Shown here piece after piece: positions 7,279 to 56,175 of a stretch of 64,000 bases of DNA. This stretch comes from a virus: the IMG/VR virus record IMGVR_UViG_3300047491_001507. One strand, written 5' to 3'. Each line of letters begins with the position of its first letter. Within the stretch, counting starts at the first letter, position 1. The notes below the pieces were generated by a model that did not search any database, had not been told where the DNA came from, and saw only the letters and a program-made list of their open reading frames with translations. The position numbers and the translations under genes were made by a program.

Positions 7279-7282
7279 CAAT

Positions 7283-9548: not shown

Positions 9549-9572
9549 TAGAAAAATAATATACAAAAAGCC

Positions 9573-10073: not shown

Positions 10074-10086
10074 ACTAAATAGTTAT

Positions 10087-12075: not shown

Positions 12076-12077
12076 CA

Positions 12078-14450: not shown

Positions 14451-14460
14451 TTTTATTAAT

Positions 14461-14492
14461 AACCTTCTGAGGAATTAATTCCTCAGAAGGTT
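14461..14492 (+). terminator. perfect 32-bp palindrome (aaccttctgaggaatt|aattcctcagaaggtt) between sheath and tube genes; possible attenuator/partial terminator
   Basis: Read directly; followed by a weak T-tract (atattacaaattt). Confidence 0.4.
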
Positions 14493-14515
14493 ATATTACA
14501 AATTTAAAGGTAAAC

Positions 14516-15082
14516 ATGCCTATATCAATGGGAATCGGAGACTTAGGCTCTCCTGCCATAATTATAAAGAGAAAATTTAGATTTACACTGGATATTCAAC
14601 ATCCTTTTGGAACTATACCACGTTCATATGTAAAAGTGGCAAGCAGACCTAAGTTAACTATAGAAGAAAAAGAATTAAACTTTCTTAATTCAACTGAATA
14701 TTACCCTGGAAAAGGCAAATGGGACGCTCTTGATGTGACTTATATTGACGTTGTTGATAAAGCAGGCACAACATTGCAGATACATAATTGGATAAGAACA
14801 GTTTGGAATTTTCATGATGTAGTAAACATGAGACAGTCTGAAATGTTGGGCTGGGGTGGTTTAGCAAATTTAGGTATGTATGACGGTTGTGGAAATCTGT
14901 TGGAATTATGGCAATTGGCCAAGTGTTTTCCAACGAGTGTTGATTTTGGAGATTTGAGTTATGCAGAATCAGATGAAGCTACAATACAATTACAGATAAG
15001 ATACTCGCAAGTTCATTATTTTAATTACTGTGGACCTAAACTTGATCCTAATACAAACAATTGTATGGGATGCTACTTTTAG
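14516..15082 (+). CDS. tail tube protein (gp19-like), paralog 1
   Basis: 188 aa, directly after the sheath; C-terminal YDGCGNLLELW...FPTSVDFGDLSYAESDEATIQLQIRY recalls the gp19 C-terminus; paralogous to the next two ORFs. Confidence 0.55.
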   Translation: MPISMGIGDLGSPAIIIKRKFRFTLDIQHPFGTIPRSYVKVASRPKLTIEEKELNFLNSTEYYPGKGKWDALDVTYIDVVDKAGTTLQIHNWIRTVWNFHDVVNMRQSEMLGWGGLANLGMYDGCGNLLELWQLAKCFPTSVDFGDLSYAESDEATIQLQIRYSQVHYFNYCGPKLDPNTNNCMGCYF

Positions 15083-15110
15083 TCCAATTTTTATAATTTT
15101 AGGAGAAAAA

Positions 15111-15686
15111 ATGGCACAAAGAGATATGGGAATCGGCGTTATAGGCCAGCCAGATATTACAATTAAGAGAAAATTTCGTTACACCTTTGAAATCGTTGGT
15201 TTTTGCAACAATGCAAAGAATAATGTTCCAGAGCATTTTGTCAAAACAGCATCTCGTCCTAATCTAAGTATCGAAGAAACGACACTTAACTTTCTTAATG
15301 CTCGTACTTGGATTCCTGGTAAAGCAGAATGGCAAGACATTACCATTACCTACGTTGATGCTGCCAGCGAGCACATGGCGTTGTTATGGAACTGGCTAGT
15401 CTCTGTATATGATTTTACCAACCCAACATCCTTGAAAATGGGAAATAAAAGAGATTGGGCGGCAACTGGTATTTTGACATTATATGATGGTTGTGGATCA
15501 CCATTGGAAACATGGGAATTGAAGAATCTTTGGCCAAAAACAATCAATTTCGGAGATCTTGATTATGGCACAAGTGACGAAGCCACCATCGAATTAGGTA
15601 TGCGTTATTCTGATGTTAGATATACTTCGTATTGCCCGTCATTCCAGCCTCAAGGTTGCTGCACAAGTTGCTCAACTAAAAAATAG
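15111..15686 (+). CDS. tail tube-like protein, paralog 2 (tube or tube initiator/terminator)
   Basis: Shares IG..G.P.I.IKRKFR..F.I and YDGCGSPLETWEL...INFGDLDYGTSDEATIELGMRY with paralog 1; start moved to internal ATG (MAQRDMGIG) because the track ORF overlaps the upstream gene. Confidence 0.5.
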   Translation: MAQRDMGIGVIGQPDITIKRKFRYTFEIVGFCNNAKNNVPEHFVKTASRPNLSIEETTLNFLNARTWIPGKAEWQDITITYVDAASEHMALLWNWLVSVYDFTNPTSLKMGNKRDWAATGILTLYDGCGSPLETWELKNLWPKTINFGDLDYGTSDEATIELGMRYSDVRYTSYCPSFQPQGCCTSCSTKK

Positions 15687-15705
15687 CAATTAAATTAGGA
15701 AAACG

Positions 15706-15738
15706 CCCCGATTAAGGTCGGGGCATTTACTTTTTTAA
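15706..15738 (+). terminator. rho-independent terminator after the second tube paralog
   Basis: gccccga-ttaagg-tcggggc hairpin followed by atttactttttt. Confidence 0.6.
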
Positions 15739-15751
15739 AAGGAAAACACTT

Positions 15752-16315
15752 ATGGCTTCAATGGGAGTGCAATTCGGACTAGAGAGGAATCTCTATTCTA
15801 AACGAAAGAATAGATGGTTTCTTGAAATTAATGGAATTAGTCCTGGACCTTCAGATACAAAATTGGTCAACATTCTGCCTCCTGAAAAGGCAGCAAGGCC
15901 ATCTTTAAGCTTTAAAGAAATGGTCGTTAATCATATTACTGAAGATGTTTATCTTCCAACAAAGCCTGATTGGAAACCGCTTAACGTTACTCTTTATGAT
16001 TTACAGAGAAGCTATGCAGATGGAAGTCGGGCTGTTCAATCACATCCGGTTTGGGGATGGGTGCAACAATACTATGAGCCGCATTTAGGAATGGTAGCTA
16101 GGCCCAATCAATATAAGATGTTTAAAACTTGCATAGTTTATATGGTTGATGGCTGTGGAACGGTTATTGAACATTGGACCTATGAACATGCTTGGTTACA
16201 ATCTGTAGATTTTCAGACTTTAGATATGTCAGATTCATCTATTATGTCTTGCGATCTTGTAATCAGATTTGCGAGAGCTTATTTTGGAACTCCTAGCATG
16301 TATGGAATAGGCTAG
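15752..16315 (+). CDS. tail tube-like protein, paralog 3 (divergent)
   Basis: Shares VDGCGTVIEHW...VDFQTLDMSDSS with the two tube paralogs. Confidence 0.45.
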   Translation: MASMGVQFGLERNLYSKRKNRWFLEINGISPGPSDTKLVNILPPEKAARPSLSFKEMVVNHITEDVYLPTKPDWKPLNVTLYDLQRSYADGSRAVQSHPVWGWVQQYYEPHLGMVARPNQYKMFKTCIVYMVDGCGTVIEHWTYEHAWLQSVDFQTLDMSDSSIMSCDLVIRFARAYFGTPSMYGIG

Positions 16316-16608
16316 CTTTCTTCCAGTTGAAATTCATTTTTTAATAATTCTCGCATATTTTCCAAAGCATCTTCTAATTGTTTATTTTTCCATTTTAATT
16401 TTCTGGTGGTTGCACTTTTGTTTAAGCGGCCTTTTTTAGTGTAACATTCTGCTTCATTGTCCAGGAGGCATTCCACAACTTCTGAATATCCATTTTTTCT
16501 TAATTTTTCAATTATTTCGCTTAATTCGAGCAATTGCACCGGATTTGCTGTTATTTTTGTATCCATATACATAATTCTATAAACCTGAAAAAAATATTTC
16601 AAGTACAT
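16312..16608 (-). CDS. hypothetical protein
   Basis: ORF track; 4-nt convergent overlap. Confidence 0.3.
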   Translation of the reverse strand: MYLKYFFQVYRIMYMDTKITANPVQLLELSEIIEKLRKNGYSEVVECLLDNEAECYTKKGRLNKSATTRKLKWKNKQLEDALENMRELLKNEFQLEES

Positions 16609-16645
16609 ATTAATAAAATTTAGAAAAAATTATAGAATTATTTAA

Positions 16646-18076
16646 TTAAAGAACTAACTTTTTCAAAAAGTCTCTGGTCATTATCTCTAAATTCACCAAG
16701 TCCCAGTAAGATGCCAACAACAAAGGAATATTATTTTGCTTACAATATTCAAGTTTGATGTTGTCGTTCTTGTTGATATATTTTAAGCCTTCTTCTCCAC
16801 CGAAGTAAGTTACTGCCTCATAATGCTGTCTGCCCTGAAATTCAATTAATCCTGCTATCTTACCTTTGCCAAAAATAGCAAAATCAAAAGGCAATGGTCT
16901 AATATTCTTGCAATCTGGAAAACGAAATTGAGCCTTATGCTCAATATTGCTATTTTCTAAAATCTCTTTAATTAATTTCTCGCCTCTAGAAGATGCACAA
17001 AAAGGACATCCTGTACCATCAACTTTTGTTCTGGAATCAATTCTAGATTTCCATATGTGATTTGAATTATTTGAGCATTGCCACCAAACTTTTATTTTAT
17101 TAGTCGCATAAGTCACATGTTCTGGTGTTAATCTTCCATTTTTAGTTGGATGCCACTCAGAAGCAATTTGAGGATGTGTTGTGGATAAACAGTTGGATTT
17201 GACTAATTTTCTTCCAACACAACAAGGACATTGAAAACCTCTTGTTCTATTGTACACTGTTGCTTCCCATTCATGGTCATCTGCTTTATCACATTTCCAC
17301 CAAATCATCTTGTGGCTCATAGCAGTCACATCAGTAGGTAACAATAGTCCATTTTTGGTTGGATGCCATTCTTTAGCCAATTCTGGATATAACGTGGACA
17401 AACAGTTATTTTCATCTGTTTTTTGCCCACAACAATACGGACAACCTGTACCTTTGCCTTTTTTGCCGCCATTAGTCCTGTTTGTAATGGCAACTTTCCA
17501 TTCGTGTTTTGGATTTTTTGAACATTGCCACCAAATCTTTACTCCGCTACCTTCTACATGATTATTAGGATCAAGTCCTTTATTGTATATTGGATGCCAC
17601 TCTCTAACTAATTCAGGATGTGTAATGGCAAGACTATTGGTTGATCCTGCTTTCTTATTTTTACAAAAAGGACATCCGGCTTTATTTTTAGTTCTAGAAA
17701 ATACTCTTGCTTCCCAAATATGTTCTAGATTTTCTTCGCATTGCCACCAAATCTTTCTAGCACTCGAAATGGTTACTTCTGTAGGTTTTAAAGTGTTTTT
17801 GGTTGGATGCCATTGCTTGGCAATATCCGGCATATTATTGGCAAGGCAATTCGACCAAACTACTTTTTGTCCTGAACAACAAGGACAGCCTGGATATTTC
17901 ACTTGAGAAAATACATAAGATTCCCACTCGTGGTCATTGCCCATAGGACATTTAAACCAACACTTCACTTTAGATGTTCTGTGTACATCTGTTGGTCTTA
18001 AAGTGTTTTTGGTTGGATGCCATAGTTTGCAAATTTCTGGATGGGTTTCTGTCAGATTTTTAGTTGTTTTTCTCAT
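16646..18076 (-). CDS. five tandem zinc-ribbon (WHPTKN...WW.C...HEW...GCP.C, DUF4379-like) repeats fused to a C-terminal endonuclease-like domain
   Basis: Five about 80-aa repeats each with EWHPTKN...P..V...S.K.IWW.C...HEW......R...GCP.C; C-terminal PLPFDFAIFGKGKIAGLIEFQGRQHYE resembles a PD-(D/E)xK/Vsr-like core. Confidence 0.5.
   Translation of the reverse strand: MRKTTKNLTETHPEICKLWHPTKNTLRPTDVHRTSKVKCWFKCPMGNDHEWESYVFSQVKYPGCPCCSGQKVVWSNCLANNMPDIAKQWHPTKNTLKPTEVTISSARKIWWQCEENLEHIWEARVFSRTKNKAGCPFCKNKKAGSTNSLAITHPELVREWHPIYNKGLDPNNHVEGSGVKIWWQCSKNPKHEWKVAITNRTNGGKKGKGTGCPYCCGQKTDENNCLSTLYPELAKEWHPTKNGLLLPTDVTAMSHKMIWWKCDKADDHEWEATVYNRTRGFQCPCCVGRKLVKSNCLSTTHPQIASEWHPTKNGRLTPEHVTYATNKIKVWWQCSNNSNHIWKSRIDSRTKVDGTGCPFCASSRGEKLIKEILENSNIEHKAQFRFPDCKNIRPLPFDFAIFGKGKIAGLIEFQGRQHYEAVTYFGGEEGLKYINKNDNIKLEYCKQNNIPLLLASYWDLVNLEIMTRDFLKKLVL
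17100..18040 (-). repeat. imperfect about 200-240-bp tandem coding repeats (ttggatgccaYtc... units) encoding the zinc-ribbon repeats
   Basis: ttggatgccac/ttggatgccat recurring near 17150, 17352, 17590, 17806, 18008. Confidence 0.6.
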
Positions 18077-18216
18077 GTGTCACCTTAATTTTGTTGAAGT
18101 ATCCTATAACATTAATTTAAGCCTAATGCAACATCAAAATAAAATTTCTTCAAATTTTCCATGGATGTTACGTAGTTAAAGGCTTTACTATATATAGTAA
18201 CTTTCAAACAAAAAAA

Positions 18217-18759
18217 TTAAGATGTTTTTTCATTATCGTAATTTTGACGCTCTTTTCCGTTACGAATCACTAAGTTTTCGAATTTGTCCTGTAAGAATTT
18301 GTGATATCTCTTCTTCAATTCGTTGTAATTCCTCGCTCCTCTATATAACTGGCGCAGGTGATTAAGGACACAAGTTGATAAATAATTAAACGCCTTCCCC
18401 TTACGTGGATCGAATCTGTCTATTTTCTCAAAGCAGATCAGGACGCCTTCTTGAATAGCATCATCCATATCAATGCCGTTAAATTTAGCCCAATGGGCAA
18501 TGTTTTCAGAGAGAAGATAGAAGGCATGGGCCAATTGTTGTTGATGAGTTTGGAAATTGTCGCAAATTTCTTGATGCCTCTGTTTGATTTGTTCTAAATT
18601 TGGTTTTTTTTGATTGTCGTTGTATTTCTTTTTGCGACGTTCATGAGTCTGCTGAAGATCGCTGACAATTAACTCATATCTTGATTTTTGTCTTTTGTGT
18701 TGTTGGAATGCTCTGATTACAGATTCAAATGTCTTATTATTAAGATATTCGTTTGTCAA
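18217..18759 (-). CDS. late-transcription sigma factor, T4 gp55-like (sigma-70 region-2 only)
   Basis: DDAIQEGVLICFEKIDRFDPRKGKAFNYLSTCVLNHLRQ aligns with sigma-70 region 2.1-2.2 (DLIQEG...KFDP.RG.KFSTYA.WWIRQ); 180 aa with no region 4, as in gp55; N-terminus YLNNKTFESVIRAF recalls gp55; apparent TTG start 3 nt after GGAGG. Confidence 0.55.
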   Translation of the reverse strand: MTNEYLNNKTFESVIRAFQQHKRQKSRYELIVSDLQQTHERRKKKYNDNQKKPNLEQIKQRHQEICDNFQTHQQQLAHAFYLLSENIAHWAKFNGIDMDDAIQEGVLICFEKIDRFDPRKGKAFNYLSTCVLNHLRQLYRGARNYNELKKRYHKFLQDKFENLVIRNGKERQNYDNEKTS

Positions 18760-18950
18760 AAAACCTCCTATGGAATATTTATTTATTTTTTCGTACTATT
18801 AATTTAGTGTGGAACTACTGAACATATATTCAAAAATACAGACAAATCCCAGAAATATTGCAGCATATCGGCAATTAATTCAGTATTATAAAGATCGTCA
18901 TATGACTAATGAATCACAGGCTTTTGAAGAACTCATTAAGATAAAATTCA

Positions 18951-19871
18951 ATGAATGCGATAATACTCACCAAGAACAACAGCAAAACAATCCAGAAAAC
19001 ACTTGATTCCATATGTAATTGCTGCTCTAGAATTATTGTAGGAGATCTAGGAAGCTGTGATGGTACTTTAGATATTTGCCGTAATTATCAGGCTGAGATT
19101 CACTATTTAGTCGAATTTGACCGTGATCAAGCTAGAAACCGTCTTCAAAAAGACCTTTCAGGCTATAATTTGATGATAGAACCTTGGGAAATAATACTAA
19201 AACAAGATGAAATAGCCCTGACAAGTGATTGTTATTATGTGAAACTATTAAAAGATAAGACGATTACTAAAGAAATCAGACTATGGAAAGGATTTCAAGA
19301 ATTTGTTAATCCTACATACGAATGCATCAAATCGACTACAAATTCTGAAATTGATTTGATTTTATATAGCTTTGCCAATAGAGATCTGTTAAGTGACTTG
19401 GAATCAATCAAGAAATGGAAAGAAACAAAGCCATCTGCCTTCCAACCTTATTACTACGAAGCATGTATCTACTTGACTTTAGGGGATCATGAAAAGTTTT
19501 TAAATGCCATTCAACATTATTTATTTTTAAACAGAACACCCAGCATTTCCACAATTATGAGCCATTATTATATGGCTTACGCATATATCTGTAAGAAAGA
19601 AGTCAAAAAGGCTTTACAAAACATCAATATTTGTTTAAGTTATTGTCCATTAATGGCTGAGTTTTGGTGTATTTTGGGAGATGTTTATTATCATTTATTG
19701 AAAAAATTTGACGAAGCTATCGAATTTTATGAAAATGCTATGATTTTAGGAGCAAAAAGGCTAAAAACAGATAAGTATCCTATTGATCTAACCAAATACA
19801 AAGAATATCCCGAAAAAATGATAGCCAGTTGTAATAAAATCAAGGAAACACAAGGTATTTATGTCAGATAA
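18951..19871 (+). CDS. glycosyltransferase family 2-like N-terminus fused to a helical (TPR-like) C-terminal region
   Basis: MNAIILTKNNSKTIQKTLDSI...IIVGDLGSCDGTLDI resembles the GT2 N-terminal nucleotide-binding motif; upstream ORF 18809..19006 may be an N-terminal extension. Confidence 0.4.
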   Translation: MNAIILTKNNSKTIQKTLDSICNCCSRIIVGDLGSCDGTLDICRNYQAEIHYLVEFDRDQARNRLQKDLSGYNLMIEPWEIILKQDEIALTSDCYYVKLLKDKTITKEIRLWKGFQEFVNPTYECIKSTTNSEIDLILYSFANRDLLSDLESIKKWKETKPSAFQPYYYEACIYLTLGDHEKFLNAIQHYLFLNRTPSISTIMSHYYMAYAYICKKEVKKALQNINICLSYCPLMAEFWCILGDVYYHLLKKFDEAIEFYENAMILGAKRLKTDKYPIDLTKYKEYPEKMIASCNKIKETQGIYVR

Positions 19872-20769
19872 TATATTGACTACAGCTATGGGAGCTTGGG
19901 GAGATGTTTTTACATCTTTGACTCTTATTGAACGATTGAAATCTCGTGTCTCTAAAGTAGATATTCTTTATTATGGATTTGATGTCGAAATTGCTAAATT
20001 TCTAGAACATCAAGAAAATATCGATTCTGTTATACATGTTTTGCCTAAATCTCATGACGATTATCACAAAATTCTTGACGAAGCGGCCCAAGACAAATTG
20101 GATTGGATCGAGGCAATTAGTGATATTAAACTAATGGACAGGAAGATACTTCCGACACATCTTCGTTATAGTTCAATGATCCCTGAGTTAATTTTTAGAA
20201 AATTTAGCTATAAACTCCCCAAAATAGAACAGTCATATCCTAAACCGTGTATTCTTTTAAACCCAGTTTCTTTTCACTCATGCAGATTTGAGGAGCATTG
20301 GCCTTTTATCCCAAATGCTATTGAATTTTTAATTAAAGAAAGTGGATGGAATTTTATCCTCATTGGTCAAGAAAAGACAAGACATTGTCTAAAAGGCGAA
20401 TATTGGGACTATCCTTACCAAATTAACATGCCGAATGTGGTTAATTTAGTAGGGCAAACTGAAAGTATGGCTCAAGTTTTAGCAATTGCTGAATTATGCG
20501 ATGGCATTATCACCACCTCCAATTGCTTGTCGATGTGGTCGATTTTATCCAACAAACCAGCAATTGTTTGGTTAAATTCTAAATTAACCCATCCATTTGC
20601 AGTAGGACATTTCTACTATAGAGAATGGATTACTAGCAAACCTAATTCAATTGTGAGTTTTGATGACGATTTTGCTACCTTTATGAAGGTTTATGAAGAA
20701 TGGAACAGAAACTTGAAATCGAAAGATGTCCCTGCTGCGATGGAATCTTTAGGAGAATCTCAGGTCTAA
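19861..20769 (+). CDS. GT-B glycosyltransferase, family 9 (heptosyltransferase)-like
   Basis: N-terminal GAWGDV (G.GD) and C-terminal LVGQTESMAQVLAIAELCDGIITTSNCLSMWSILSNKPAIVW resemble the GT9 signature (l.g...l.el.ali..a.lvi.nDSG.mHlA...P.v.l). Confidence 0.45.
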   Translation: MSDNILTTAMGAWGDVFTSLTLIERLKSRVSKVDILYYGFDVEIAKFLEHQENIDSVIHVLPKSHDDYHKILDEAAQDKLDWIEAISDIKLMDRKILPTHLRYSSMIPELIFRKFSYKLPKIEQSYPKPCILLNPVSFHSCRFEEHWPFIPNAIEFLIKESGWNFILIGQEKTRHCLKGEYWDYPYQINMPNVVNLVGQTESMAQVLAIAELCDGIITTSNCLSMWSILSNKPAIVWLNSKLTHPFAVGHFYYREWITSKPNSIVSFDDDFATFMKVYEEWNRNLKSKDVPAAMESLGESQV

Positions 20770-21407
20770 AGATAGATCAATATTGCGATAATTGCGATAC
20801 CCTTTTGACCCCTATCGTAGATGAAGATATTTACGGGGTTGATTATTACATTAAATATGTCAGATATCACAGCACAACATTAAACGCCAAATTGCAAGAA
20901 ACACGTTGGTCTATTGTTCAGAAATATCGCAATGAAGGAAATCTGTTGGACATAGGCTGTTCTGTAGGTTCATTTATTGAAAAAGCTCCCTCTGGGTTCA
21001 ATGCCGAAGGATACGACGTAAACAAATTTTGCTTAATCCATTGTGGTTGCTATGATTTGGTCACTCACAAAAAACTTCCCATTGACAAACGATATGATGT
21101 CGTTACAATGTTTGATGTTTTGGAGCATGTTCCAAACATAGAAGACATTGTGGTTAAAATCAAGGCGATGTTGGTTCCAAAAGGTATTTGGATCGTTACA
21201 ATCCCTAATTTTTACCATGAGAGGCTTGAATCCATTGACAAATGGAGGCATTATCGCCCTAAGGAGCATGTGTATTGTCTGTCAGAAAATTCCATGAAAG
21301 CTCTGTGTCAAAAATTTGATTTTGAGTTGTTAGAGGTCAATTTTGACGAATCCGAGCATCGACCTCCCAAAGACAATTTAGCCACTTACATTATGAGAAA
21401 ACAATGA
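20700..21407 (+). CDS. class I SAM-dependent methyltransferase with N-terminal Cys4 zinc finger
   Basis: Motif I LLDIGCSVGSF, post-I acidic DVVTMFDVLEHV; CPCCDG...CDNCD. Confidence 0.6.
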   Translation: MEQKLEIERCPCCDGIFRRISGLKIDQYCDNCDTLLTPIVDEDIYGVDYYIKYVRYHSTTLNAKLQETRWSIVQKYRNEGNLLDIGCSVGSFIEKAPSGFNAEGYDVNKFCLIHCGCYDLVTHKKLPIDKRYDVVTMFDVLEHVPNIEDIVVKIKAMLVPKGIWIVTIPNFYHERLESIDKWRHYRPKEHVYCLSENSMKALCQKFDFELLEVNFDESEHRPPKDNLATYIMRKQ

Positions 21408-21882: not shown

Positions 21883-22089
21883 ATGTATCAAATCATTGCA
21901 AGTGTCGTTAAGATCCATGAAGATTTGTCACAAACTGGATATAATATTCCAACCTTTTATCTTGATCCTCAGTGTCAAGGCATAACTGATGCGACTCATG
22001 CAGAAAAGGTTGCTAGAGACATAATTAATCCAACAAATGATCACACTATTAAGGTGAATGTTTGTGCTGTTTTCGTTTTTCCAGATTAG
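21883..22089 (+). CDS. small hypothetical protein
   Basis: ORF track. Confidence 0.25.
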   Translation: MYQIIASVVKIHEDLSQTGYNIPTFYLDPQCQGITDATHAEKVARDIINPTNDHTIKVNVCAVFVFPD

Positions 22090-22505
22090 GCGTGATCCAT
22101 CGGATGATGGACTTTAATCCATTCGCCTGAAAATGCCGAATCAGGATCTTCATGTTCTTTGGGCATATCATCATAATGCCTGCATGAGCCTAATTTCTCA
22201 AGAATTGGCCCTTTAGGTCCCATATTGGTGCAAATCACATCTGATATTGGCAGATGATGTCTTTTGACCATATCTACAATTGGAAGACGATCTCTAGAAA
22301 TTCTGCTAGTTACAATAATCACAGAATATCCTTTTTTGGCATAATCTCGGATTAGCTCAAATCTTTCGTGGTTTAGATGATCGTCATTATCTGAATCTCC
22401 ATTGAACCACAATTGGGATTCATCGTCCCATTGAGGCACGGTAAGCGTGCTATCAAAGTCAAAAGTGACAACTTTTTGATTTTCTAACCACATCTGAAAT
22501 TTCAT
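22086..22505 (-). CDS. HAD-superfamily phosphatase (nucleotidase / polynucleotide 3'-phosphatase-like)
   Basis: Motif I FDFDSTLT (DxDxT), motif II VIIVTSR; N-terminus MKFQMWLEN also resembles the shared targeting-like motif. Confidence 0.5.
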   Translation of the reverse strand: MKFQMWLENQKVVTFDFDSTLTVPQWDDESQLWFNGDSDNDDHLNHERFELIRDYAKKGYSVIIVTSRISRDRLPIVDMVKRHHLPISDVICTNMGPKGPILEKLGSCRHYDDMPKEHEDPDSAFSGEWIKVHHPMDHA

Positions 22506-22592: not shown

Positions 22593-24293
22593 ATGGGATT
22601 TAAAGATTTTGTGATATTTGAGGCTGGTTTAGAGCATCGTGCTTTCAACAAGTTCAAAAAATTAGAAGAAATTCGCAATTTGCTTATGCAACAAGGATAT
22701 TCTGAAAGTGATATTTGGGTAACTTATTCGGAAGTTCCTAGAATTACTATTTGGGGAGGCTCAGCAGATAAAGCTCAAGGCACTCCTCATGCTTTGTTTG
22801 CCTATCCTATAACAAAAATTCTTGAAAGAAAAGATACTTTTGGCGAATACGCCACTGACAGACCTTATATTGTTGTATTTATTGCAAACGAAAAAATCAA
22901 CGATATAGGAGGAGCAAATGCCGATTTCAAGATTAGAAACAGATTTAAAGCAGCAGAAACTCCTGAGGTCGTTAGGTCTGTTTATAAAAACATCGATAAA
23001 TCAATAAAATCTAATCCTTATTTTAATTTGATTAGTAAAAAATTTGGATCTTATTGGTATATTGACTTTTCATCAATAGACGATGATGAAATCAAATACA
23101 AATCAAAAGATACATTAAGACATGTTATTGAAGAAAACTTAGACGAGGTTATGGATTTACGAGGTTCGGATACCATACTTGGAGATGAAATACCATACGT
23201 TTATAGACATTATAAAGATTATCACAACTCTCAAAGCATCCAACTTTTCAGCGACACATATTTAAATGTGAGTTTATCTTTGGAAGCATTTGATAAAATT
23301 TTAAATATTCCCGAATTTGACTACATTAGTCAATATGGACGTACACTTTTGCCATTAGATGTATTGCTAAGATTCGATTCGCAAATTAGAAAAGATGGCA
23401 TTCCTAAAATATCTGAAGTGATAAAAAGACTTCGTCAAGATGAGCCCGAGATCACAAAAATAATTCAAATGCTGTTTGATAATTGTGTCAAAAAACAAAA
23501 AAACATAAATAAACTAAGAATCAGCAAGGCATTCGGCAAAGACTTTCCCAATAAAAAGAAATTGCTTCAATTTGCCCAAAATCATGGATTGGATGTGGTT
23601 AGGGCCTTTAAAAACATGCAAACTTCAGGAAATAAGATTGAAAATGACAGTCAGGTCATCTATCGTTTTACTGAACAATTAGCAATGCAATGGGCAGAAA
23701 AGGATGGAAAGTATCGATACTATCCATCTAGATGGACCAGAATACTTAAAGCAATTGGATATACTAACATAGCAGATTTAAGGAATACTGGTGCAGTGCA
23801 TGTTGCCGAATCTACGCAAGGTGCGTTTTTTGATACAAGAAAATTAGAGATGGTCGGATTGGTACGCAATAAATCCCATAATGATTATCGTTTTTATCAA
23901 AGTCCCAGCTTCATATCTGGGGGACGAGAACAACGAAAATCTGGCTCTCCTAATAATTATTTTAGTTCGCCTCAGGAAAAAGAAGCAGAAGCAAGGCAAT
24001 ATAATACCAAAAGTCGATTTGTTGATTTAAAGAATGCTTTGTCCAGGGTCGAAAGGAGTTTGGATTTTGGCGTTAGTGTGTCAAGTGAATACGTTGAGTA
24101 TTTGAAAAAAGCTTTCAGTAGTTTCAAGAAAGTCTTAAATTGGGCTCAAAATCAATCTTCTTGGGGATATGATTTGTATTCTTTAAAAAGACTAATATCA
24201 CAAATTGAATTTAAAAACAATTCAGAAGCTATCAAGCCTCTCTTAGACAATATTAAATCTACAATCGACACTGCCTACGAAAATACAATGTAA
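22593..24293 (+). CDS. paralog 1 of a five-member tandem family (capsid-targeting-like N-terminus, conserved N- and C-terminal domains)
   Basis: MGFKDFVIFE|AGLEHRAFNKF...; conserved blocks EVPRITIWGGS..QGTPHALFAYP, YIVVFIANE.INDIGG, YRFTEQLAMQWAEKDGK..YPSRW.RILK.IGYTNIADL..TGAVH..E.TQGAFFDTRKLEM, SP.EKE. Confidence 0.6.
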   Translation: MGFKDFVIFEAGLEHRAFNKFKKLEEIRNLLMQQGYSESDIWVTYSEVPRITIWGGSADKAQGTPHALFAYPITKILERKDTFGEYATDRPYIVVFIANEKINDIGGANADFKIRNRFKAAETPEVVRSVYKNIDKSIKSNPYFNLISKKFGSYWYIDFSSIDDDEIKYKSKDTLRHVIEENLDEVMDLRGSDTILGDEIPYVYRHYKDYHNSQSIQLFSDTYLNVSLSLEAFDKILNIPEFDYISQYGRTLLPLDVLLRFDSQIRKDGIPKISEVIKRLRQDEPEITKIIQMLFDNCVKKQKNINKLRISKAFGKDFPNKKKLLQFAQNHGLDVVRAFKNMQTSGNKIENDSQVIYRFTEQLAMQWAEKDGKYRYYPSRWTRILKAIGYTNIADLRNTGAVHVAESTQGAFFDTRKLEMVGLVRNKSHNDYRFYQSPSFISGGREQRKSGSPNNYFSSPQEKEAEARQYNTKSRFVDLKNALSRVERSLDFGVSVSSEYVEYLKKAFSSFKKVLNWAQNQSSWGYDLYSLKRLISQIEFKNNSEAIKPLLDNIKSTIDTAYENTM

Positions 24294-24310
24294 AATAGGA
24301 TTCTTTGACA

Positions 24311-24317
24311 CTAAATA
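24311..24317 (+). promoter_or_regulatory. CTAAATA motif 7 nt upstream of the paralog-2 ATG
   Basis: ttctttgacactaaataacttattATG. Confidence 0.3.
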
Positions 24318-24324
24318 ACTTATT

Positions 24325-26076
24325 ATGTTGTTCAAAGAATTTTTAAATATATCGGAAGCCGGTCTAGAACATCGGGCTTTTAATAAATTAAAAAAGCTGC
24401 AAGATATTAGAAATATGCTTGCTAATCAAGGAATTGCCGATTCCGATATTTGGGTGACATTTTCGGAAGTTCCTAGAATTACCATTTGGGGCAGATCCGC
24501 AACTAAAAGTCAAGGAACTCCCCATGCATTATTTGCTTATCCTATTCAACAAGTGCTTGCTGCTGGACAGGACTTTCGTTATTATGGTAACACTCGTCCT
24601 TATATGGTTGTATTTATTGCTAACGAAGCCATCAACGATATTGGAGCAAAACATATTGAATTCAATATGTTTAAGAACAATGAATCTGTGAAAAATCAAG
24701 ACGTTGTAGATGCTGTTTATTTAAAATTGGCAAATGATGAATCTTGTAAGTACATTGAAGAAATACATAATTATTTCACAGATGAATATATCGAAATATC
24801 AGATTCTAGTAACAGATTGAATGCTTATTGGTTGAATAAGGATATTTTCGATCAAAAATCAAAACAGATAGCACGATTGGTGTTTTCGAATATATTAAAA
24901 CAAAAACTTCAGAGTTTGAAAGGGTTCGATACTATATTCGGAAATAGCGTATATCAAATTTATGATGTTTATTATAGAACGGATCATGAAGATACAGATG
25001 ATATTTTTAGCAGAATTATTGTTGAACTATCTTATGACGTAAAACGAATAATCAACAGCCCTTACAATGAGGATAAGTTTAAAGATCTGCAACAATATAC
25101 CTATTATTTGAACAAGCAAGAGTTAATAGATTTTGACAAAAAAATCAGACAGTCAGGCCCTGGTGTGGCCGAAATTATCGAAAATTTGAAGAATGACGAA
25201 GCCGAAATTAAAGCGTCCGTCAGAAAATTCATTAAAACCTGTATCAAGACATTTAAACAAATTAAAGATCAAAGGTTGAGATCTGTGTATCGTTATAATT
25301 TTCCTAAAAAGAAAGAACTTACGGCTTTCTGCAAAGAAAATGGACTGAGCATAATCGATGCTTTAAGACATATGACTGGAACTTATAAACTTCGAAACAA
25401 GCTTCAATTTGTCTACCGGTTTACAGAACAACTGGCACTTCAATGGGCTAGAAAAGATGGGAAAGAGGATTATTGGCCAGCTAGATGGGCTATGATATTA
25501 AAGAAAATTGGATTTACCAATATCGCAGATTTACAACACACTGGAGCCGTTCACGCTAGTGAACCCACACAAGCTGCATTTTTTGACACAAGAAAATTAG
25601 AAATGATAGCTTCTATCAATAATATATCGCATATTGACTATCGTCCTGTACAAAGCGATGATGCTTCATTAGAAACAGAAAAGTTGACAGGAGGAAAAAG
25701 ACAAAGACAAAGAGATCCTACTAGTTCACTAAGTTCTTACTATGGAACTCCAGAAGAAAAACAACAAAAAGCTTTGGCAGATAAGGCTTATTCTTATGTT
25801 ATGGCTTTAAGGGATGAAATTTCTAATCTTCATTACTTTGCAAGATCTCATGCTCCAGTGCCAGTACATCGTGTGTCTGCAATAACGGGTGCTATTCAAA
25901 AATTCTTGTCTATTTACAAATGGCTATCTGGTAACTTTGAGCAAATAGGGATTGATAAAAAAGAAATTTTTGAATTATTAAAGGATCTTAATGGTCTTAA
26001 TGTAAAAGACTATACTGGTCGTATTATTCCTGTATTAAATAGACTTAAAGCAAAATTGGAGCCAAATGGGGTTTAG
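24325..26076 (+). CDS. paralog 2 of the tandem family
   Basis: MLFKEFLNISE|AGLEHRAFNKL...; same conserved N- and C-terminal blocks (VYRFTEQLALQWARKDGK, TGAVHASEPTQAAFFDTRKLEM). Confidence 0.6.
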   Translation: MLFKEFLNISEAGLEHRAFNKLKKLQDIRNMLANQGIADSDIWVTFSEVPRITIWGRSATKSQGTPHALFAYPIQQVLAAGQDFRYYGNTRPYMVVFIANEAINDIGAKHIEFNMFKNNESVKNQDVVDAVYLKLANDESCKYIEEIHNYFTDEYIEISDSSNRLNAYWLNKDIFDQKSKQIARLVFSNILKQKLQSLKGFDTIFGNSVYQIYDVYYRTDHEDTDDIFSRIIVELSYDVKRIINSPYNEDKFKDLQQYTYYLNKQELIDFDKKIRQSGPGVAEIIENLKNDEAEIKASVRKFIKTCIKTFKQIKDQRLRSVYRYNFPKKKELTAFCKENGLSIIDALRHMTGTYKLRNKLQFVYRFTEQLALQWARKDGKEDYWPARWAMILKKIGFTNIADLQHTGAVHASEPTQAAFFDTRKLEMIASINNISHIDYRPVQSDDASLETEKLTGGKRQRQRDPTSSLSSYYGTPEEKQQKALADKAYSYVMALRDEISNLHYFARSHAPVPVHRVSAITGAIQKFLSIYKWLSGNFEQIGIDKKEIFELLKDLNGLNVKDYTGRIIPVLNRLKAKLEPNGV

Positions 26077-27778: not shown

Positions 27779-27779
27779 G

Positions 27780-29477: not shown

Positions 29478-29483
29478 TAAATA
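29474..29483 (+). promoter_or_regulatory. ATAATAAATA (T4 late-promoter TATAAATA-like) about 16 nt upstream of the paralog-5 ATG, followed by SD GGAG
   Basis: catataataaatagtgtggagtattacgATG. Confidence 0.3.
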
Positions 29484-29498
29484 GTGTGGAGTATTACG

Positions 29499-49346: not shown

Positions 49347-50786
49347 TCACTCTATAGTTAAATATTGATCTAGATCTTTTGAGTTAACCATCAGTTTTTT
49401 AATATCAAAAATTGCTCTTACAGAATTATAGTAAGGAGCTTTGTCCATTCCTATGCCCCAAAATGGCAAACTCACTTCTTCCCCTAACAAACAAAAACAA
49501 GGCTTATCCATTGCTCCAGCAATATGCATGTGCAATGTATCCACTGTTATAATACAATCTGACTCTTTAATATAAGAACATAATTCTAAAATATCCTTAC
49601 AAGGCAAGAATTTAACCGGTAAATCGTATTGTTCGATATCTATTTGAATTTCTTCAATTAAATCTGTTCTTTGAGGAATATAAAAATCGCAATTTTCATA
49701 ACTTTTCAATAATGTAGCCAAATCCTGCATGTTGATTTTTTTCATGGAGGATAAATGCTTTGCTGATATCCAATTTATTATAACCCGTTGTTTCTCAGAA
49801 CTTGGCAGTTCTACACTAGGAATTATATCTAAATATTTTTCATACTTAAAAGGAAGATGTTCCATCAATTGATATATGTTCATGATATAATCAACATTTA
49901 CCAATTCTCTACTATCAAATCCTGGCAGCAATACCTCATCAATATACAATAATTGATTTACTACACAATGCAGATCATGATATGCCGCAAATTTAATTCT
50001 ACAACTAGGATACAGTGTCTTTAATTGATTGACTAATCCTAACAGCCATATATTATCGCCCAAACCCTGTTCTGAATATAATAAGACGGTTTTACCATCT
50101 AAACTACTTCCATCCCACTTATTGGGAGGTGTCCAAGGCACAAATACATGTCCTACTTGTTCAAAAATCTTGTATTCATAAATAAAAACCGGACTTTCTA
50201 TGATCTTATTTGAATTTCCAAATATTGTCAGTAAATCTGGAGAATTGGGGAATCTTCTTACTAATGACAGACAAAATGGATGCAAACCAAAGTACAACAC
50301 CGCTTCTTTGTTTTTTCCCAATGCTTTTGTGTATTCTTCAAATTTATTGCTATATCCTATTAGCTCTATTCTTAAGGACGCTGTCGTTTCGTTTTTAGGA
50401 TCTAATGCTTCAGATAACATCAAATGCTTTTCTGCTTCTATCAGTTTTCCCATACGAGTGTATATTTTGCAAAAAGTCTGATGCAAGAAAGCATCTGTAT
50501 TATCAATTGCTTGACATTGACGAGCATAATCCAATGCTTTGTCATATTCTTTAATATCCATGTATGCATTGGCTAGGTTTACTAAAGCTGTCTTTTTTGT
50601 CAAATATGAATCCAATGCTCTTTTAAGCGTTTCAATGCCTTCTGTGTGGTTTCCTTTTAAGCACATTTCAGAACCAACCTTCAAGAAGGCATATGGATTG
50701 AAAGGCACTACAGAATGCAATACTGGCTCATTTTTCTCGTTCATTGTCAATTCTAATCCCAATTCGTCCAAAGTTTTATTCGACAT
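49347..50786 (-). CDS. TPR-repeat protein fused to a GT-B glycosyltransferase (GT9/heptosyltransferase-like)
   Basis: N-terminal TPR-like helices (ALVNLANAYMDIKEYDKALDYARQCQAID...); C-terminal EQGLGDNIWLLGLVNQL and CIITVDTLHMHIAGAMDKPCFCLLG resemble the GT9 G.GD / DSG.mHlA motifs. Confidence 0.5.
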   Translation of the reverse strand: MSNKTLDELGLELTMNEKNEPVLHSVVPFNPYAFLKVGSEMCLKGNHTEGIETLKRALDSYLTKKTALVNLANAYMDIKEYDKALDYARQCQAIDNTDAFLHQTFCKIYTRMGKLIEAEKHLMLSEALDPKNETTASLRIELIGYSNKFEEYTKALGKNKEAVLYFGLHPFCLSLVRRFPNSPDLLTIFGNSNKIIESPVFIYEYKIFEQVGHVFVPWTPPNKWDGSSLDGKTVLLYSEQGLGDNIWLLGLVNQLKTLYPSCRIKFAAYHDLHCVVNQLLYIDEVLLPGFDSRELVNVDYIMNIYQLMEHLPFKYEKYLDIIPSVELPSSEKQRVIINWISAKHLSSMKKINMQDLATLLKSYENCDFYIPQRTDLIEEIQIDIEQYDLPVKFLPCKDILELCSYIKESDCIITVDTLHMHIAGAMDKPCFCLLGEEVSLPFWGIGMDKAPYYNSVRAIFDIKKLMVNSKDLDQYLTIE

Positions 50787-50827: not shown

Positions 50828-52201
50828 ATGTCGAGAATTTTTGTAGATACTTCTGAGAATGGTGCTAGTTTTGGTTTAGGAGATTCTATTTGTTTTATTC
50901 CTGCTTTGCGTGCCTTAAGGGAAAAGCACCCCCACGATGAAATTGTACTAGTCACCTATTTTGCTCATATTAATGTTTTTGCGTATTGTGATTTTGTAGA
51001 TTATGTTTTGCCATTAGATTTTCTTAATCCAGGCGATTGGACCTATGGCTACAATGTGTCTGTAGATGAACGATTTAATATCGTCAATCCCAAGCACACT
51101 TTCCTCCAACATCACAAAGAACATATGGCAAAAGCCAATATTCGACATATGCTCCTTGAATCTCCCGAAGGTCATTCTTTGGATTATGAACTTTCCATTC
51201 GTGATCATGACAAAGAGCCTATTCAGAAATTTAAAGATGATATTCTGAAACAGGCCAAAGACAAGCCAATTGTGGCTATTTGTCCTTCCATTACCATGTA
51301 TAGCCGTATGTGGCCCAAACAACGATGGGAAGAATTGACCAAATTACTTCAAAAAAATAAATATTTTGTGGTTTCTATTGGTCATGCTGAAGATTTTGAG
51401 ATTGATGTGGATTATGATGCTCGTGGTAAATATCCTGTCCATTACATTCCTAAAATACTTGATATTTTTAAGTCTGTTATTCTTATTGATTCCGGTATGT
51501 TGCATGTTGCTTCTATAAATCAAAAAGTTCATATCACAATGATCTCTACCGGCAGATTTCCTCCAGAAGTTATCGTTCCCTACCGAAATGGCAAATGGGC
51601 TGATAATGTCACTATCATTCAACACAACTGCCCTCAAAAAGAAGCTTGTTTTAAAGAATACGCCAGTGAATTGAGCACTAATGACCATATTGAACGTAAT
51701 TTAAGAAAATACCAGCAAGAAAACAACAAACCGTTTCCACCTGAAGAATCCCAGTTGCTTTTGAAGTATGTTTGCTGGAACCACTGTCTTCGTGAAGAAA
51801 ATAAATTCATTTGTAACACTATTAATGCTCAAGATGTTTACAATGCTTTCAAGGATAAAGAATCGCAATTAGTAGCTTTGGAGAGCAAAGGATTTCCGGT
51901 TTATCACCAAGTACAGCCAACCTTTACTGAAGATTATAAGGTTTGGAAAGAAACCATATTTTTTAAAGGGGCAGAACATCGAACTTTTATTGATGCTCAT
52001 GAAATCAATAGCGTAGAGCTAATTACTGCCAAGGTCAAAATCATCAAAGACCTTTACCCCAAAAATCTACTTATAGTCATTGCTAGGAAGGATTTTGTGC
52101 CAATGCTGAAAGAATGTGCAGACATTTACCACACAATTCCCGTCGAATTCATTAAAAATAATTTTCGAATAGGCACCAAAGACAATTTCTTGAGATTGTA
52201 A
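50828..52201 (+). CDS. GT-B glycosyltransferase, GT9/heptosyltransferase-like
   Basis: FGLGDSICFIPALRALREKHP (G.GD...P.l.al) and ILIDSGMLHVASINQKVHI (DSG.mHlA). Confidence 0.45.
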   Translation: MSRIFVDTSENGASFGLGDSICFIPALRALREKHPHDEIVLVTYFAHINVFAYCDFVDYVLPLDFLNPGDWTYGYNVSVDERFNIVNPKHTFLQHHKEHMAKANIRHMLLESPEGHSLDYELSIRDHDKEPIQKFKDDILKQAKDKPIVAICPSITMYSRMWPKQRWEELTKLLQKNKYFVVSIGHAEDFEIDVDYDARGKYPVHYIPKILDIFKSVILIDSGMLHVASINQKVHITMISTGRFPPEVIVPYRNGKWADNVTIIQHNCPQKEACFKEYASELSTNDHIERNLRKYQQENNKPFPPEESQLLLKYVCWNHCLREENKFICNTINAQDVYNAFKDKESQLVALESKGFPVYHQVQPTFTEDYKVWKETIFFKGAEHRTFIDAHEINSVELITAKVKIIKDLYPKNLLIVIARKDFVPMLKECADIYHTIPVEFIKNNFRIGTKDNFLRL

Positions 52202-55596: not shown

Positions 55597-56175
55597 ATGG
55601 ACTCTTTAACAAAAATTATAAAAGAAACAGAAGCCTTAGATATTAATATTGAGCCTTTTACAGCAGATTTTCCTTCTACTATTCGGGATTCTGTTCTTCA
55701 AACCAATTTTTATTGGGGGTTAGCAGCTTATATTTCTCTGTTTAAAGTGAAAAAAGTCTTAGAATTAGGCACTTGCACAGGAGCAAGTGCTGCTATTATG
55801 GCAAGGGCCGGTGCAGAAGTTGATACCTATGATTTATTGGATAAATGGGAACTTCCCAAAATAGACAATTTGTATCGCCATATTGTTCCTCAAGATTATT
55901 TGGAATTTTTGAAATTTGAAGGTTATGACATGATCTTTGTAGATGTAGGACACGATGGTAAAGCAGAACAAGAAATTCACGAAAAACTAACAAAAGAATA
56001 TAAAGGCATTGTGTTCTATGACGATATCATCATAAACCAAGATATGATCTATTTCTGGAATGGAATTAAACAAGACAAATTGCCTTTATTTTGGCATGTG
56101 GCAAAATATCCCTCAGCCAATCCTGGAGGAGGACTTATCACCAAGAATGTTGGGTTTGGTATTGTCAGATATTAG
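55597..56175 (+). CDS. class I SAM-dependent methyltransferase (O-methyltransferase-like)
   Basis: Motif I VLELGTCTGASA, acidic DTYDL, MIFVDVGHD; start moved to internal ATG (MDSLTKII) because the track ORF (55477) overlaps the convergent gene. Confidence 0.45.
   Translation: MDSLTKIIKETEALDINIEPFTADFPSTIRDSVLQTNFYWGLAAYISLFKVKKVLELGTCTGASAAIMARAGAEVDTYDLLDKWELPKIDNLYRHIVPQDYLEFLKFEGYDMIFVDVGHDGKAEQEIHEKLTKEYKGIVFYDDIIINQDMIYFWNGIKQDKLPLFWHVAKYPSANPGGGLITKNVGFGIVRY

Follow-up and report, generated by a model that had tools for sequence, protein, structure and literature searches.

Six genes of an uncultured phage, here called p1 to p6, encode predicted glycosyltransferases and methyltransferases, and this gene set probably adds a methylated sugar chain to a protein. 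In the reading that we favour, at a probability of about 0.4, p1 would act first on the protein, p2 and p3 would elaborate the glycan, and p4, p5 and p6 would extend the set; the acceptor is likely a protein of the tail or virion. The proposal of an earlier note on this DNA that the phage glycosylates proteins gains support in its general form: p1 is built like the SunS, ThuS and GmaR proteins and is fixed inside a block of tail genes, and p4 carries a TPR domain ahead of a GT-B domain, as do FlmG and OGT.

The window, the whole stretch of 64,000 nucleotides (64 kb) that was analysed, is part of the genome of an uncultured T4-like jumbo phage of 306 kb (contig 306,208 bp). A check of its open reading frames placed p1 to p6 where the earlier note had located them. 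The more than 390 homologues of p1, at 42-52% identity, and the nine homologues of p2 indicate that p1 to p6 are genes and not chance ORFs. The gene inventory of the earlier note and its family calls were correct, all six genes being real.

A GT2-TPR protein fixed in the tail-gene block

The predicted model of p1 (18951..19871, plus strand; AF2, pLDDT 94.4) comprises a compact GT-A (GT2) domain (residues 1-140) followed by the helices of a C-terminal TPR domain (residues 145-300), and thereby bears out the GT2-like, helical protein described earlier for this ORF. The best fold matches were SunS and ThuS, which spanned both domains (Foldseek, E 4e-13, TMq 0.64-0.70). In Pfam, the TPR_2 match was above the cut-off and the GT2 (PF00535) score was slightly under it (21.7 bits vs 23.3); many p1 homologues carry a precomputed PF00535 match. 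Sequence searches matched GmaR (E 0.0025) and SunS (E 0.16), with alignment of the N-terminal region. The one tblastn match of p1 was partial and lies in an uncultured, unannotated phage of 595 kb; at the DNA level, 18951-21407 matched none of 50,697 phage records.

As in SunS/ThuS (PDB 7msn, 7msp, 7msk) and Listeria GmaR (PDB 22ao), the GT-A (GT2) domain of p1 precedes TPR-type helices. The motifs KNx, D-x-G-S-x-D-x-T and ARN appear to be common to p1 and these proteins, and the likeness extends through ARN. Residues D32, S35, D37, T39, R62, R110 and E124 are 98-100% conserved among 120 p1 homologues and align to motif positions of the canonical GT2-TPR proteins, which argues for a working nucleotide-sugar site. 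The DXD position, however, is unlike that of SunS, ThuS and GmaR. It reads E-P-W-E in p1 where a canonical GT2-TPR protein has D-A-D-E, and this replacement holds throughout the family (E in 114, P in 120, W in 120 and E in 119 of the 120 homologues). This casts doubt on a canonical, Mn-dependent GT2 mechanism for p1. Two acidic residues, E77 and E80, are retained at the metal-site position. At 306 aa, p1 is far shorter than SunS (~420) or GmaR (637), and the GT-A part of its model is unusually small (~140 aa); the GT domain of GmaR, which O-GlcNAcylates flagellin, has ~180 residues (PMC9638930). The most conserved part of p1 is the TPR and C-terminal region. Taken together, the model and the motifs point to a bipartite glycosyltransferase of the SunS/ThuS/GmaR type, with predicted activity. 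To our knowledge, all characterised enzymes with this GT-A plus TPR architecture act on a peptide or protein. The genetic settings differ: SunS is encoded on a prophage, whereas p1 is a core gene in the tail block of a lytic-type jumbo phage, and p1 adjoins neither a bacteriocin precursor nor a flagellin gene.

Gene order around p1 was kept in all five of the related contigs examined, in the sequence tail sheath, tube genes, late-type sigma factor, p1, and neck and baseplate genes. p1 is a core, position-fixed gene of this phage lineage. The sigma-like gene of the window (18217..18759, minus strand) is divergent from the p1 operon, and in all related loci the sigma factor gene adjoins the p1 homologue in this divergent arrangement. 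Its 180-aa product matches sigma-70 region 2 only (Sigma70_r2, E 1.5e-7) and is compared here to T4 gp55.

The segment 18809-21407 reads as a single operon of a small ORF, p1, p2 and p3, each overlapping the next gene. The small ORF (18809..19006, plus strand, GTG start) encodes 65 aa with one TPR-like helical hairpin and shares its last 56 nt with the beginning of p1. It is conserved, and its counterparts in contigs L001, L002, L006, L007 and L008 end near the start of the p1 homologue or overlap it; the product may be a partner of p1. A role for it as a glycocin-like substrate was rejected, since its alignment holds no invariant Cys, Ser or Thr. The promoter-like motif ACTAAATA is found upstream of the sheath gene and only in a degenerate form upstream of the p1 operon, so that late co-expression of p1 is unsupported by this motif. 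The T4 late promoter TATAAATA was not enriched (6 observed vs 7.2 expected).

An accessory transferase and methyltransferase pair

The model of p2 (19861..20769, plus strand) suggests a divergent GT-B transferase with a GT9 fold. In the fold comparison its closest structures were the LPS heptosyltransferases WaaF, 3tov and WaaC, with slightly better matches than TibC, which ranked fourth. With WaaC, WaaF and Veillonella 3tov, p2 has in common the GT-B fold and an N-terminal G-x-G-D; this GD motif is GAWGD in p2 and is invariant among its homologues. It differs from these GT9 LPS enzymes in being invisible by sequence and in having lost the Asp of the DSG motif. The C-terminal motif of p2, I-T-T-S-N-C-L-S-M-W, has no Asp and no His, the canonical DSG being replaced by T-S-N. 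p2 had no match in Pfam, NCBIfam or PHROG, and hhalign related its family to those of p4 and p5 at less than 1% probability. The p2 family profile gave no significant match to PDB sequences, and no GT9 entry among them, so the classification of p2 is by fold.

p3 (20700..21407, plus strand) is a class-I SAM-dependent methyltransferase with a four-Cys ribbon at its N-terminus (Pfam Methyltransf_23, 74.8 bits, E 9e-21; PHROG 6564). In L001 and L002 a methyltransferase gene comes after the p2 homologue, in L003-L005 one is located close by, and p2 and p3 occur together in the window, L001 and L002. The pair is accessory, being present in only part of the phage lineage.

A second, rare set of genes

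p4 (49347..50786, minus strand) has an N-terminal TPR domain and a C-terminal GT9-like GT-B domain in which both Asp motifs are intact. Its TPR match in Pfam was above the cut-off and its GT9 score below (19.8 bits vs 22); distant p4 homologues exceeded the GT9 cut-off. The motifs EQGLGDN and DTLHxH are invariant in a six-member family alignment. Five close homologues were found; the next matches, in the hundreds, were giant proteins of bacteria that contain several TPR and GT9 domains. By hhalign, the families of p4 and p5 were related at 92% probability. In the order of its domains, TPR then GT-B, p4 is like OGT and Caulobacter FlmG, the latter as judged from its description; unlike both, its catalytic domain is GT9-like. 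FlmG binds its substrate, flagellin, through the TPR domain, and sugar transfer is the task of its C-terminal GT-B domain (PMC7591256). Classification of p4 as GT41/OGT, an option that the earlier note had put forward, was ruled out by sequence: p4 had no Glyco_transf_41 match in Pfam at E up to 0.1, OGT was matched in the PDB search through the TPR region only, and the catalytic domain matched GT9 instead.

p5 (50828..52201, plus strand) comprises a GT9 domain (residues 1-250; PF01075, 36.6 bits vs a cut-off of 22), an insert with an invariant His and four Cys (H266, C268, C274, C320 and C329), and a C-terminal domain of ~120 aa with no family match. Its GLGD motif is invariant. The second motif is I-D-S-G-M-L-H in p5 itself, and its Asp position is D, N or S in homologues. 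A word-indexed search of 5.8 billion proteins returned two homologues, to which two paralogues on contig L011 are added; a single-sequence search of viral contigs with p5 found no related locus, and tblastn with p4 and p5 gave no match. The p5 family profile retrieved 3tov and 1psw (WaaF), and TibC was absent from its matches at E up to 10. Both p4 and p5 weakly matched the NCBIfam models for heptosyltransferases I, II and III, at scores far under the equivalog cut-offs. Compared to WaaC, WaaF and 3tov, p4 has the additional N-terminal TPR domain and its profile matches are weak, whereas p5 has the Cys4 insert and the C-terminal domain in addition, with Pfam and profile matches present. The setting also differs from that of the GT9 LPS enzymes, as neither a lipid A-Kdo context nor ADP-heptose genes were seen in the window. 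The p4/p5 GT9 pair is rare, accessory and patchy.

p6 (55597..56175, plus strand) is a probable class-I methyltransferase. Its Methyltransf_24 score was below the Pfam cut-off (22.2 bits vs 26.3), which makes this call the weaker one, though SAM motif I (VLELGTCTGASA) can be seen in the translated sequence. Thus, the two methyltransferases proposed in the earlier note are a solid call for p3 and a weak one for p6. Similarly, of its three GT9-like enzymes, p5 passes the family cut-off, p4 stays under it, and p2 is GT9 by fold and not by sequence.

A GT9-like gene adjoins a methyltransferase gene in L011, L012, L013 and L015 as well. These methyltransferases are not orthologues of p3 or p6, and the association therefore holds at the level of enzyme class only. 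In the bacterial contig L014, a GT2-TPR gene, a TPR-GT9 gene and a methyltransferase-GT1 fusion all lie in one cluster. Among the window ORFs scanned there were no sugar-nucleotide synthesis genes and no homologue of the ADP-heptose genes GmhA, HldE and GmhB.

A proposed route to a glycosylated protein

In the scheme that we propose, p1 would bind a conserved protein through its TPR domain, and the compact GT-A domain would add the first sugar to the bound protein from a host nucleotide-sugar. In the sub-lineage that carries p2 and p3, p2 would then add a further sugar and p3 would methylate the glycan. The rare second set of p4, p5 and possibly p6 may widen this repertoire, with p4 probably also protein-directed, via its TPR domain. 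p1 belongs to the core genes and keeps its position between the late-type sigma factor and the tail, neck and baseplate genes; the likeliest acceptor would therefore be a phage protein that is conserved, probably one of the tail or virion. A precedent exists in the mycobacteriophages, in which capsid and tail-tube subunits of the phage are glycosylated by transferases that it encodes itself (Freeman et al. 2023, as cited in PMC12619734). These are siphoviruses of Actinobacteria, and the likeness lies in the proposed role.

Several observations weigh against glycosylation. p1 is under the Pfam GT2 cut-off and has E-P-W-E for DXD; p2 has lost the DSG Asp and has no sequence-level similarity to GT9; no sugar-nucleotide synthesis gene was among the window ORFs scanned; and ACTAAATA is degenerate at the p1 operon. 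In addition, the characterised GT9 enzymes that we know of, BAHTs excepted, work on LPS and not on protein.

Fibre repeats and competing explanations

The fibre ORF runs on the plus strand from 59295 to the window end and contains a tandem repeat of 171 nt (57 aa), in 6.1 copies, at 62865-63914 (TRF). The earlier note had suggested that GT9 enzymes of the BAHT kind heptosylate Ser in these repeats, in the way that AAH and TibC modify AIDA-I and TibA. We consider this very improbable. The repeats are indeed Ser/Thr-rich, and the His and four Cys that are invariant in the insert of p5 may recall an iron-binding site such as that of TibC. p2 has the GT9-related GT-B fold in common with the BAHTs. 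The 57-aa repeat, however, is also present in the virion proteins of numerous unrelated phages (Pseudomonas PaBG, Aeromonas and Vibrio phages, Prochlorococcus P-RSP2) and of an archaeal virus; it is thus a general fibre module rather than a dedicated glycosylation substrate. No link between the repeats and the transferases was found in the analysis. The GT9 gene closest to the fibre is p5, which ends at 52201, with nine unrelated genes in between, and the BAHT gene setting, an adjoining autotransporter-type substrate, is absent. Nor are the GT9 proteins closer to TibC than to the LPS enzymes, p2 being slightly better matched by the LPS heptosyltransferases and the p5 profile missing TibC, and no ADP-heptose pathway gene was among the window ORFs scanned. 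The gene directly upstream of the fibre (58199-59230) was tried as a fibre glycosyltransferase and rejected, as it gave a weak GT4-conflict match only (E 0.003). It had no PDB or NCBIfam match, a single-sequence search of viral contigs was also empty, and its only phage homologues adjoin DNA polymerase/primase genes in Ralstonia phage RSL1.

The transferases and methyltransferases could instead alter the LPS core, capsule or surface glycoproteins of the host during infection, with the TPR domains docking onto host machinery, and so block superinfection or keep progeny off cell debris. Large cyanophages with many transferases are usually interpreted in this manner (PMC12801897). We regard this explanation, which the earlier note had named as its alternative, as possible, if less than likely, here. 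The best structural matches of p2 (WaaF, WaaC) and the weak matches of p4 and p5 to the heptosyltransferase I, II and III models favour it, as does the accessory and patchy occurrence of p4, p5 and the p2/p3 pair, which is expected of host-specific functions. Yet the NCBIfam heptosyltransferase scores are all far under the family cut-offs and, as judged by family matches, no protein of the set belongs to a membrane-associated or lipid-carrier enzyme family. p1 is moreover a core gene fixed in a structural block, and its most conserved part is the TPR domain, which is easier to reconcile with a conserved partner of phage origin than with host glycans, which vary. That same conservation is compatible with a p1 that is no enzyme at all, namely a GT-derived TPR scaffold acting as a tail assembly chaperone or as a regulator linked to the sigma factor, with p2 and p3 an unrelated add-on. 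Replacement of the DXD by E-P-W-E across 120 homologues, the small GT-A domain of ~140 aa and the invariably divergent sigma factor gene are in keeping with such a role, and GmaR, a GT2-TPR protein, acts as a transcription regulator (anti-repressor; PMC9638930). GmaR is active as an enzyme too, however, and p1 keeps D32, S35, D37, T39 and R62 at nucleotide-binding positions with 98-100% conservation, needless in a pure scaffold, along with the acidic E77 and E80 at the metal site. A non-enzymatic p1 is, on balance, distinctly unlikely. Finally, the classical role of phage transferases is DNA modification (discussed in PMC12619734), and the set could decorate hypermodified bases of the phage genome in evasion of restriction; the RSL1 homologues of the 58199-59230 gene, beside DNA polymerase/primase, would agree with this. 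We find it scarcely credible. The TPR fusions indicate protein partners, positions 948-1562 encode a uracil-DNA glycosylase, and no hydroxymethylase was found in the examined part of the 64-kb window, out of a genome of 306 kb. We also know of no GT9 or GT2-TPR enzyme that acts on DNA.

Implications for jumbo phages

Glycosylation of a protein remains our preferred reading, and its significance lies in the phages concerned, since virion self-glycosylation is established in mycobacteriophages and essentially unexplored in T4-like and jumbo phages. The moraphages, to which the phage of the window may be related, are jumbo phages from aquatic habitats, 200-307 kb in size, that have T4-type tail genes and a sigma factor; their core orthogroups include four annotated as putative glycosyltransferases (PMC12619734). 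Bacteroidota are their predicted hosts. By description, they resemble the phage of the window (306,208 bp, T4-like tail genes, sigma factor); that paper gives no domain architectures, TPR fusions, GT9 folds or synteny for them. In place of the vague 'putative glycosyltransferases in the core genome', the present analysis offers a specific candidate, p1, of the SunS/GmaR type and with an altered metal motif. The p2 family indicates that GT9-fold enzymes exist beyond the reach of sequence models.

If p1 modifies a virion protein, it would be a compact protein glycosyltransferase of 306 aa with a new active-site variant, and its activity would bear on phage adsorption, host range and recognition. 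In a bolder form of the proposal, which we hold to be unlikely, the p1 family is essential and lineage-defining and glycosylates a conserved tail or baseplate protein through its E-x-W-E site, and the patchy GT9-like and methyltransferase genes build strain-specific methylated glycans upon it. Were this true, the tails of these phages would bear a variable glycan coat that affects host range or evasion of host recognition.

The tail block and the place of p1

The metagenomic contig that contains the window is 306,208 bp long, and the tail genes of the window are of the T4 type. They include a tail sheath gene (12078-14450; 26% identity to cyanophage gp18), a gp15-like gene and baseplate genes; a small sigma-like gene (18217-18759) matches sigma-70 region 2 only, as T4 gp55 does. 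G+C content is about 35% throughout, and no tRNA genes were found in the window. The p1-p3 region has no DNA-level match among 50,697 phage records, and the phage has no close cultured relative. The published 'moraphages' are 200-307 kb in size; their gene set includes T4-like tail genes, a sigma factor and four core orthogroups annotated as putative glycosyltransferases (PMC12619734). The window fits this description, which makes them a candidate lineage. The glycosyltransferase and methyltransferase genes of the earlier note were all found in place, and its inventory is borne out by ORF, Pfam and fold evidence.

The key gene of the set is p1 (18951-19871). Gene order around it is identical in five related contigs (L001, L002, L006, L007 and L008): the sheath gene, three gp19-like tube genes, one further gene, and a small gene and the sigma factor gene on the opposite strand, followed by an ORF of 64-70 aa, the p1 homologue, and then the neck and baseplate genes. 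Thus, p1 is a core gene with a fixed place in the tail block. Only the window, L001 and L002 have p2 (19861-20769) and p3 (20700-21407) after it, and both are missing from L006-L008; in a more distant phage, a p2 homologue lies near other methyltransferases and a GH130 gene. The overlaps in the window between p1 and p2 (19861-19871) and between p2 and p3 (20700-20769) suggest that the three genes are translated in a coupled fashion. The small ORF upstream (18809-19006, + strand) encodes a single TPR-like hairpin and shares 56 nt with the beginning of p1; each of the five related loci has an equivalent that ends at, or runs into, the start of its p1 homologue. The conservation of its polar tail is probably imposed by the p1 codons that overlap it. 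We considered it as a glycocin-like substrate, and it is no obvious candidate, as its family has no invariant Cys, Ser or Thr.

Contig L007 (ENA ERZ26692762) is 693,098 bp long with the tail-block synteny around its p1 homologue unchanged, and another homologue (P0084) resides on a contig of 664,448 bp; p1-bearing contigs of this size (>660 kb) belong to very large relatives or are concatemers produced in assembly. The window also has an insertion, at 16646-18076 on the - strand, that separates the tube genes from the sigma factor gene and encodes five DUF4379 treble-clef zinc-finger repeats in one protein (E 1e-87); it is missing at that place in L001, L002 and L006-L008. Five tandem paralogues of ~570 aa with no family match (22593-31202, + strand), a HAD-like gene (22086-22505) and small ORFs make up a stretch of ~10 kb that is missing between p1 and the neck genes in L006-L008.

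The T4 late promoter TATAAATA is not enriched in the window. The sheath gene and several other genes have a different motif, ACTAAATA, at a distance of 12-15 nt in front of their start codons. The form (C)ACTAAATA, at 12032, 22579, 24311 and 10075 on the + strand and at 56430, 47489 and 2391 on the - strand, is enriched ~17-fold in upstream regions and may be the counterpart of the T4 late promoter in this lineage. Upstream of the p1 operon the motif is degenerate, and the relatives carry a different conserved stretch there; co-expression of p1 with the tail genes therefore does not follow from the motif. The (C)ACTAAATA motif also precedes several genes whose products begin with M-x-F-K-x-W/F-L/I-x-x-x-E. 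This N-terminus is common to several unrelated ORFs (for example MKFKEWLLLEKD, MNFKSWLEQKEE and MRFKHFIINEQG), located at 22086-22505 (-), 22593, 47089-47478 (-), 54998-55534 (-), 56113-56418 (-) and 57065, and may be a targeting or processing signal.

p1 as a predicted two-domain glycosyltransferase

The sequence of p1 matches TPR_2 over the Pfam cut-off, with GT2 slightly under it (21.7 vs 23.3 bits). The predicted model (pLDDT 94.4) has a GT-A domain of 140 residues, with TPR helices after it. Among its PDB matches, the glycocin S-glycosyltransferases SunS and ThuS rank first, far above pure TPR proteins, and the match spans both domains (E 4e-13, TMq 0.64-0.70). The N-terminal sequence aligns to that of GmaR (E 0.0025) and also to that of SunS. 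The ~180-residue GT domain of GmaR O-GlcNAcylates flagellin (PMC9638930).

More than 390 proteins, 300-320 aa long and at 42-52% identity, make up the p1 family. Across 120 homologues D32, S35 and D37 are invariant, and T39 (119/120) and R62 (118/120) nearly so; these correspond to the D-x-G-S-x-D-x-T and A-R-N positions of canonical GT2-TPR proteins. R110 and E124 are likewise invariant. The DXD position is occupied by E-P-W-E, with P and W invariant and the two Glu residues kept in 114 and 119 of the 120. The strict retention of the nucleotide-site residues, together with a fixed non-canonical acidic motif, looks like an altered active site that still works, not one in decay. That p1 has a non-catalytic role, which the replaced DXD would accommodate, is in our estimation improbable, but it is one of the two main rival readings.

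The GT9-fold proteins and the methyltransferases

The p2 protein has no match in Pfam, PHROGs or NCBIfam, and nine homologues were found among 5.8 billion clustered proteins. With the model built from their alignment (pLDDT 88.4), the ten best Foldseek matches in the PDB are all GT9 structures or TibC. The invariant GAWGD of the family corresponds to the N-terminal G-D motif of GT9, and T-S-N-C-L-S-M-W stands in place of the C-terminal D-S-G-x-x-H. Sequence profiles connect p2 neither to GT9 structures nor to p4 or p5; the earlier assignment as GT9-like is thus right for the fold only.

Homologous catalytic domains are shared by p4 (49347-50786, - strand) and p5 (50828-52201) (hhalign 92%, E 7e-7). 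In p4, TPR scores over the Pfam cut-off and GT9 slightly under it (19.8 vs 22); EQGLGDN and DTLHxH are invariant in its family. Beyond five close homologues in 1.8 billion representatives, hundreds of bacterial proteins of very large size are related to p4; TPR and the p4-type domain recur within them, and they score GT9 over the cut-off. The domain order resembles that of OGT, but the catalytic domain does not; with no GT41 match in Pfam, p4 is not an OGT. GT9 is over the cut-off in p5 (36.6 bits), which has two database homologues only, plus two paralogues on the same foreign contig. Its family keeps GLGD, YSRMW and (D/N/S)-S-G and, after the GT domain, invariant H266, C268, C274, C320 and C329. 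The PDB matches of the p5 family profile include 3tov and the LPS enzyme WaaF, whereas the autotransporter heptosyltransferase TibC was not retrieved.

The methyltransferase p3 is a clear Methyltransf_23 (74.8 bits), and p6 (55597-56175) is a weak Methyltransf_24 match (22.2 vs a cut-off of 26.3) with a visible SAM motif I. Class-I methyltransferases adjoin GT9-like genes in the foreign contigs L011, L012, L013 and L015, and on L014, a bacterial contig, a single cluster brings together a canonical GT2-TPR, a TPR-GT9, a methyltransferase-GT1 fusion and a CgeB-like GT1-TPR. None of the methyltransferases beside foreign GT9-like genes is an orthologue of p3 or p6, and the association holds at the level of enzyme class only. 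Its recurrence suggests that the three enzyme types act jointly on one glycan. The L014 cluster (4345-18835; Logan ERR15087775, 212-kb contig) has the same enzyme classes as the phage set, with a TPR protein and a giant TPR protein besides. The 14-kb L011 (1-14424; JGI 3300048647) encodes three p5-like GT9 paralogues, a GT17/GT2 fusion, Methyltransf_24 and Methyltransf_21 proteins, a 683-aa methyltransferase, a B12-binding radical SAM enzyme, a second radical SAM enzyme and a split transketolase/E1-like pair; this gene content suggests a pathway to sugars that are branched or highly methylated.

Several other genes of the window are of note. A KamA-family radical SAM aminomutase (52895-54040, + strand) matches the lysine 2,3-aminomutase AblA model best (E 1.5e-128), yet under the cut-off of that model, and is convergent with a RimI-like GNAT acetyltransferase gene (54021-54464, - strand). 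The two could be an ablA/ablB-like pair for N-acetyl-beta-lysine or have an EpmB-like function. A 129-aa protein (47089-47478, - strand), mostly Pro/Gly low-complexity with GGPPGLGGP repeats, has the ACTAAATA motif upstream. The window also encodes a 2H phosphoesterase with an Acb1 (anti-CBASS)-like match (54998-55534), a LAGLIDADG homing endonuclease (8191-9072), a CTP synthase (39872-41479) and a class-II glutamine amidotransferase-like protein (36702-37895), all on the - strand.

Acceptor and proposed function

The earlier note, with GT9-related autotransporter heptosyltransferases and the 57-aa repeats of the fibre in view, had suggested that the phage glycosylates its own fibre or virion proteins or else remodels host surface glycans. 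The tandem repeat of 171 nt (6.1 copies, 62865-63914) recurs in virion or tail proteins of Pseudomonas PaBG and of Aeromonas, Vibrio, Stenotrophomonas, Microcoleus and Prochlorococcus phages, and in a virus of Methanomassiliicoccales. This distribution in unrelated viruses marks it as a general fibre module and not as an acceptor of its own. In the window, the fibre gene has no GT9 gene beside it; the gene directly upstream (58199-59230, + strand) encodes an unclassified protein of 343 aa with a weak GT4-type match and 38-44% identity to hypothetical proteins of the Ralstonia jumbo phages RSL1 and RsoM2USA, the RSL1 homologue being ORF258, beside DNA polymerase I and primase. TibC never ranks above the LPS enzymes in the p2 structure or p5 profile rankings, and the window ORFs scanned include no ADP-heptose or other sugar-nucleotide genes. 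BAHT-like heptosylation of the fibre repeats is, on these grounds, very unlikely. The broader proposal, protein glycosylation, gains strength, chiefly from p1 and p4.

We give a probability of about 0.4 to a reading in which a TPR-guided protein glycosyltransferase, core to the lineage, would act on a protein, and accessory GT9-fold and methyltransferase enzymes would elaborate the glycan. A virion protein is the favored acceptor, by synteny only. Remodeling of the host surface is a less probable alternative that we still take seriously, and among the main rivals it ranks ahead of a non-catalytic role for p1. The enzyme families are already known, as are phage-encoded transferases, virion glycosylation included. 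What is new is a GT9-fold family, that of p2, invisible to sequence models, and a SunS/GmaR-type gene that has an E-P-W-E site and a fixed position within the tail block of a T4-like jumbo phage lineage.
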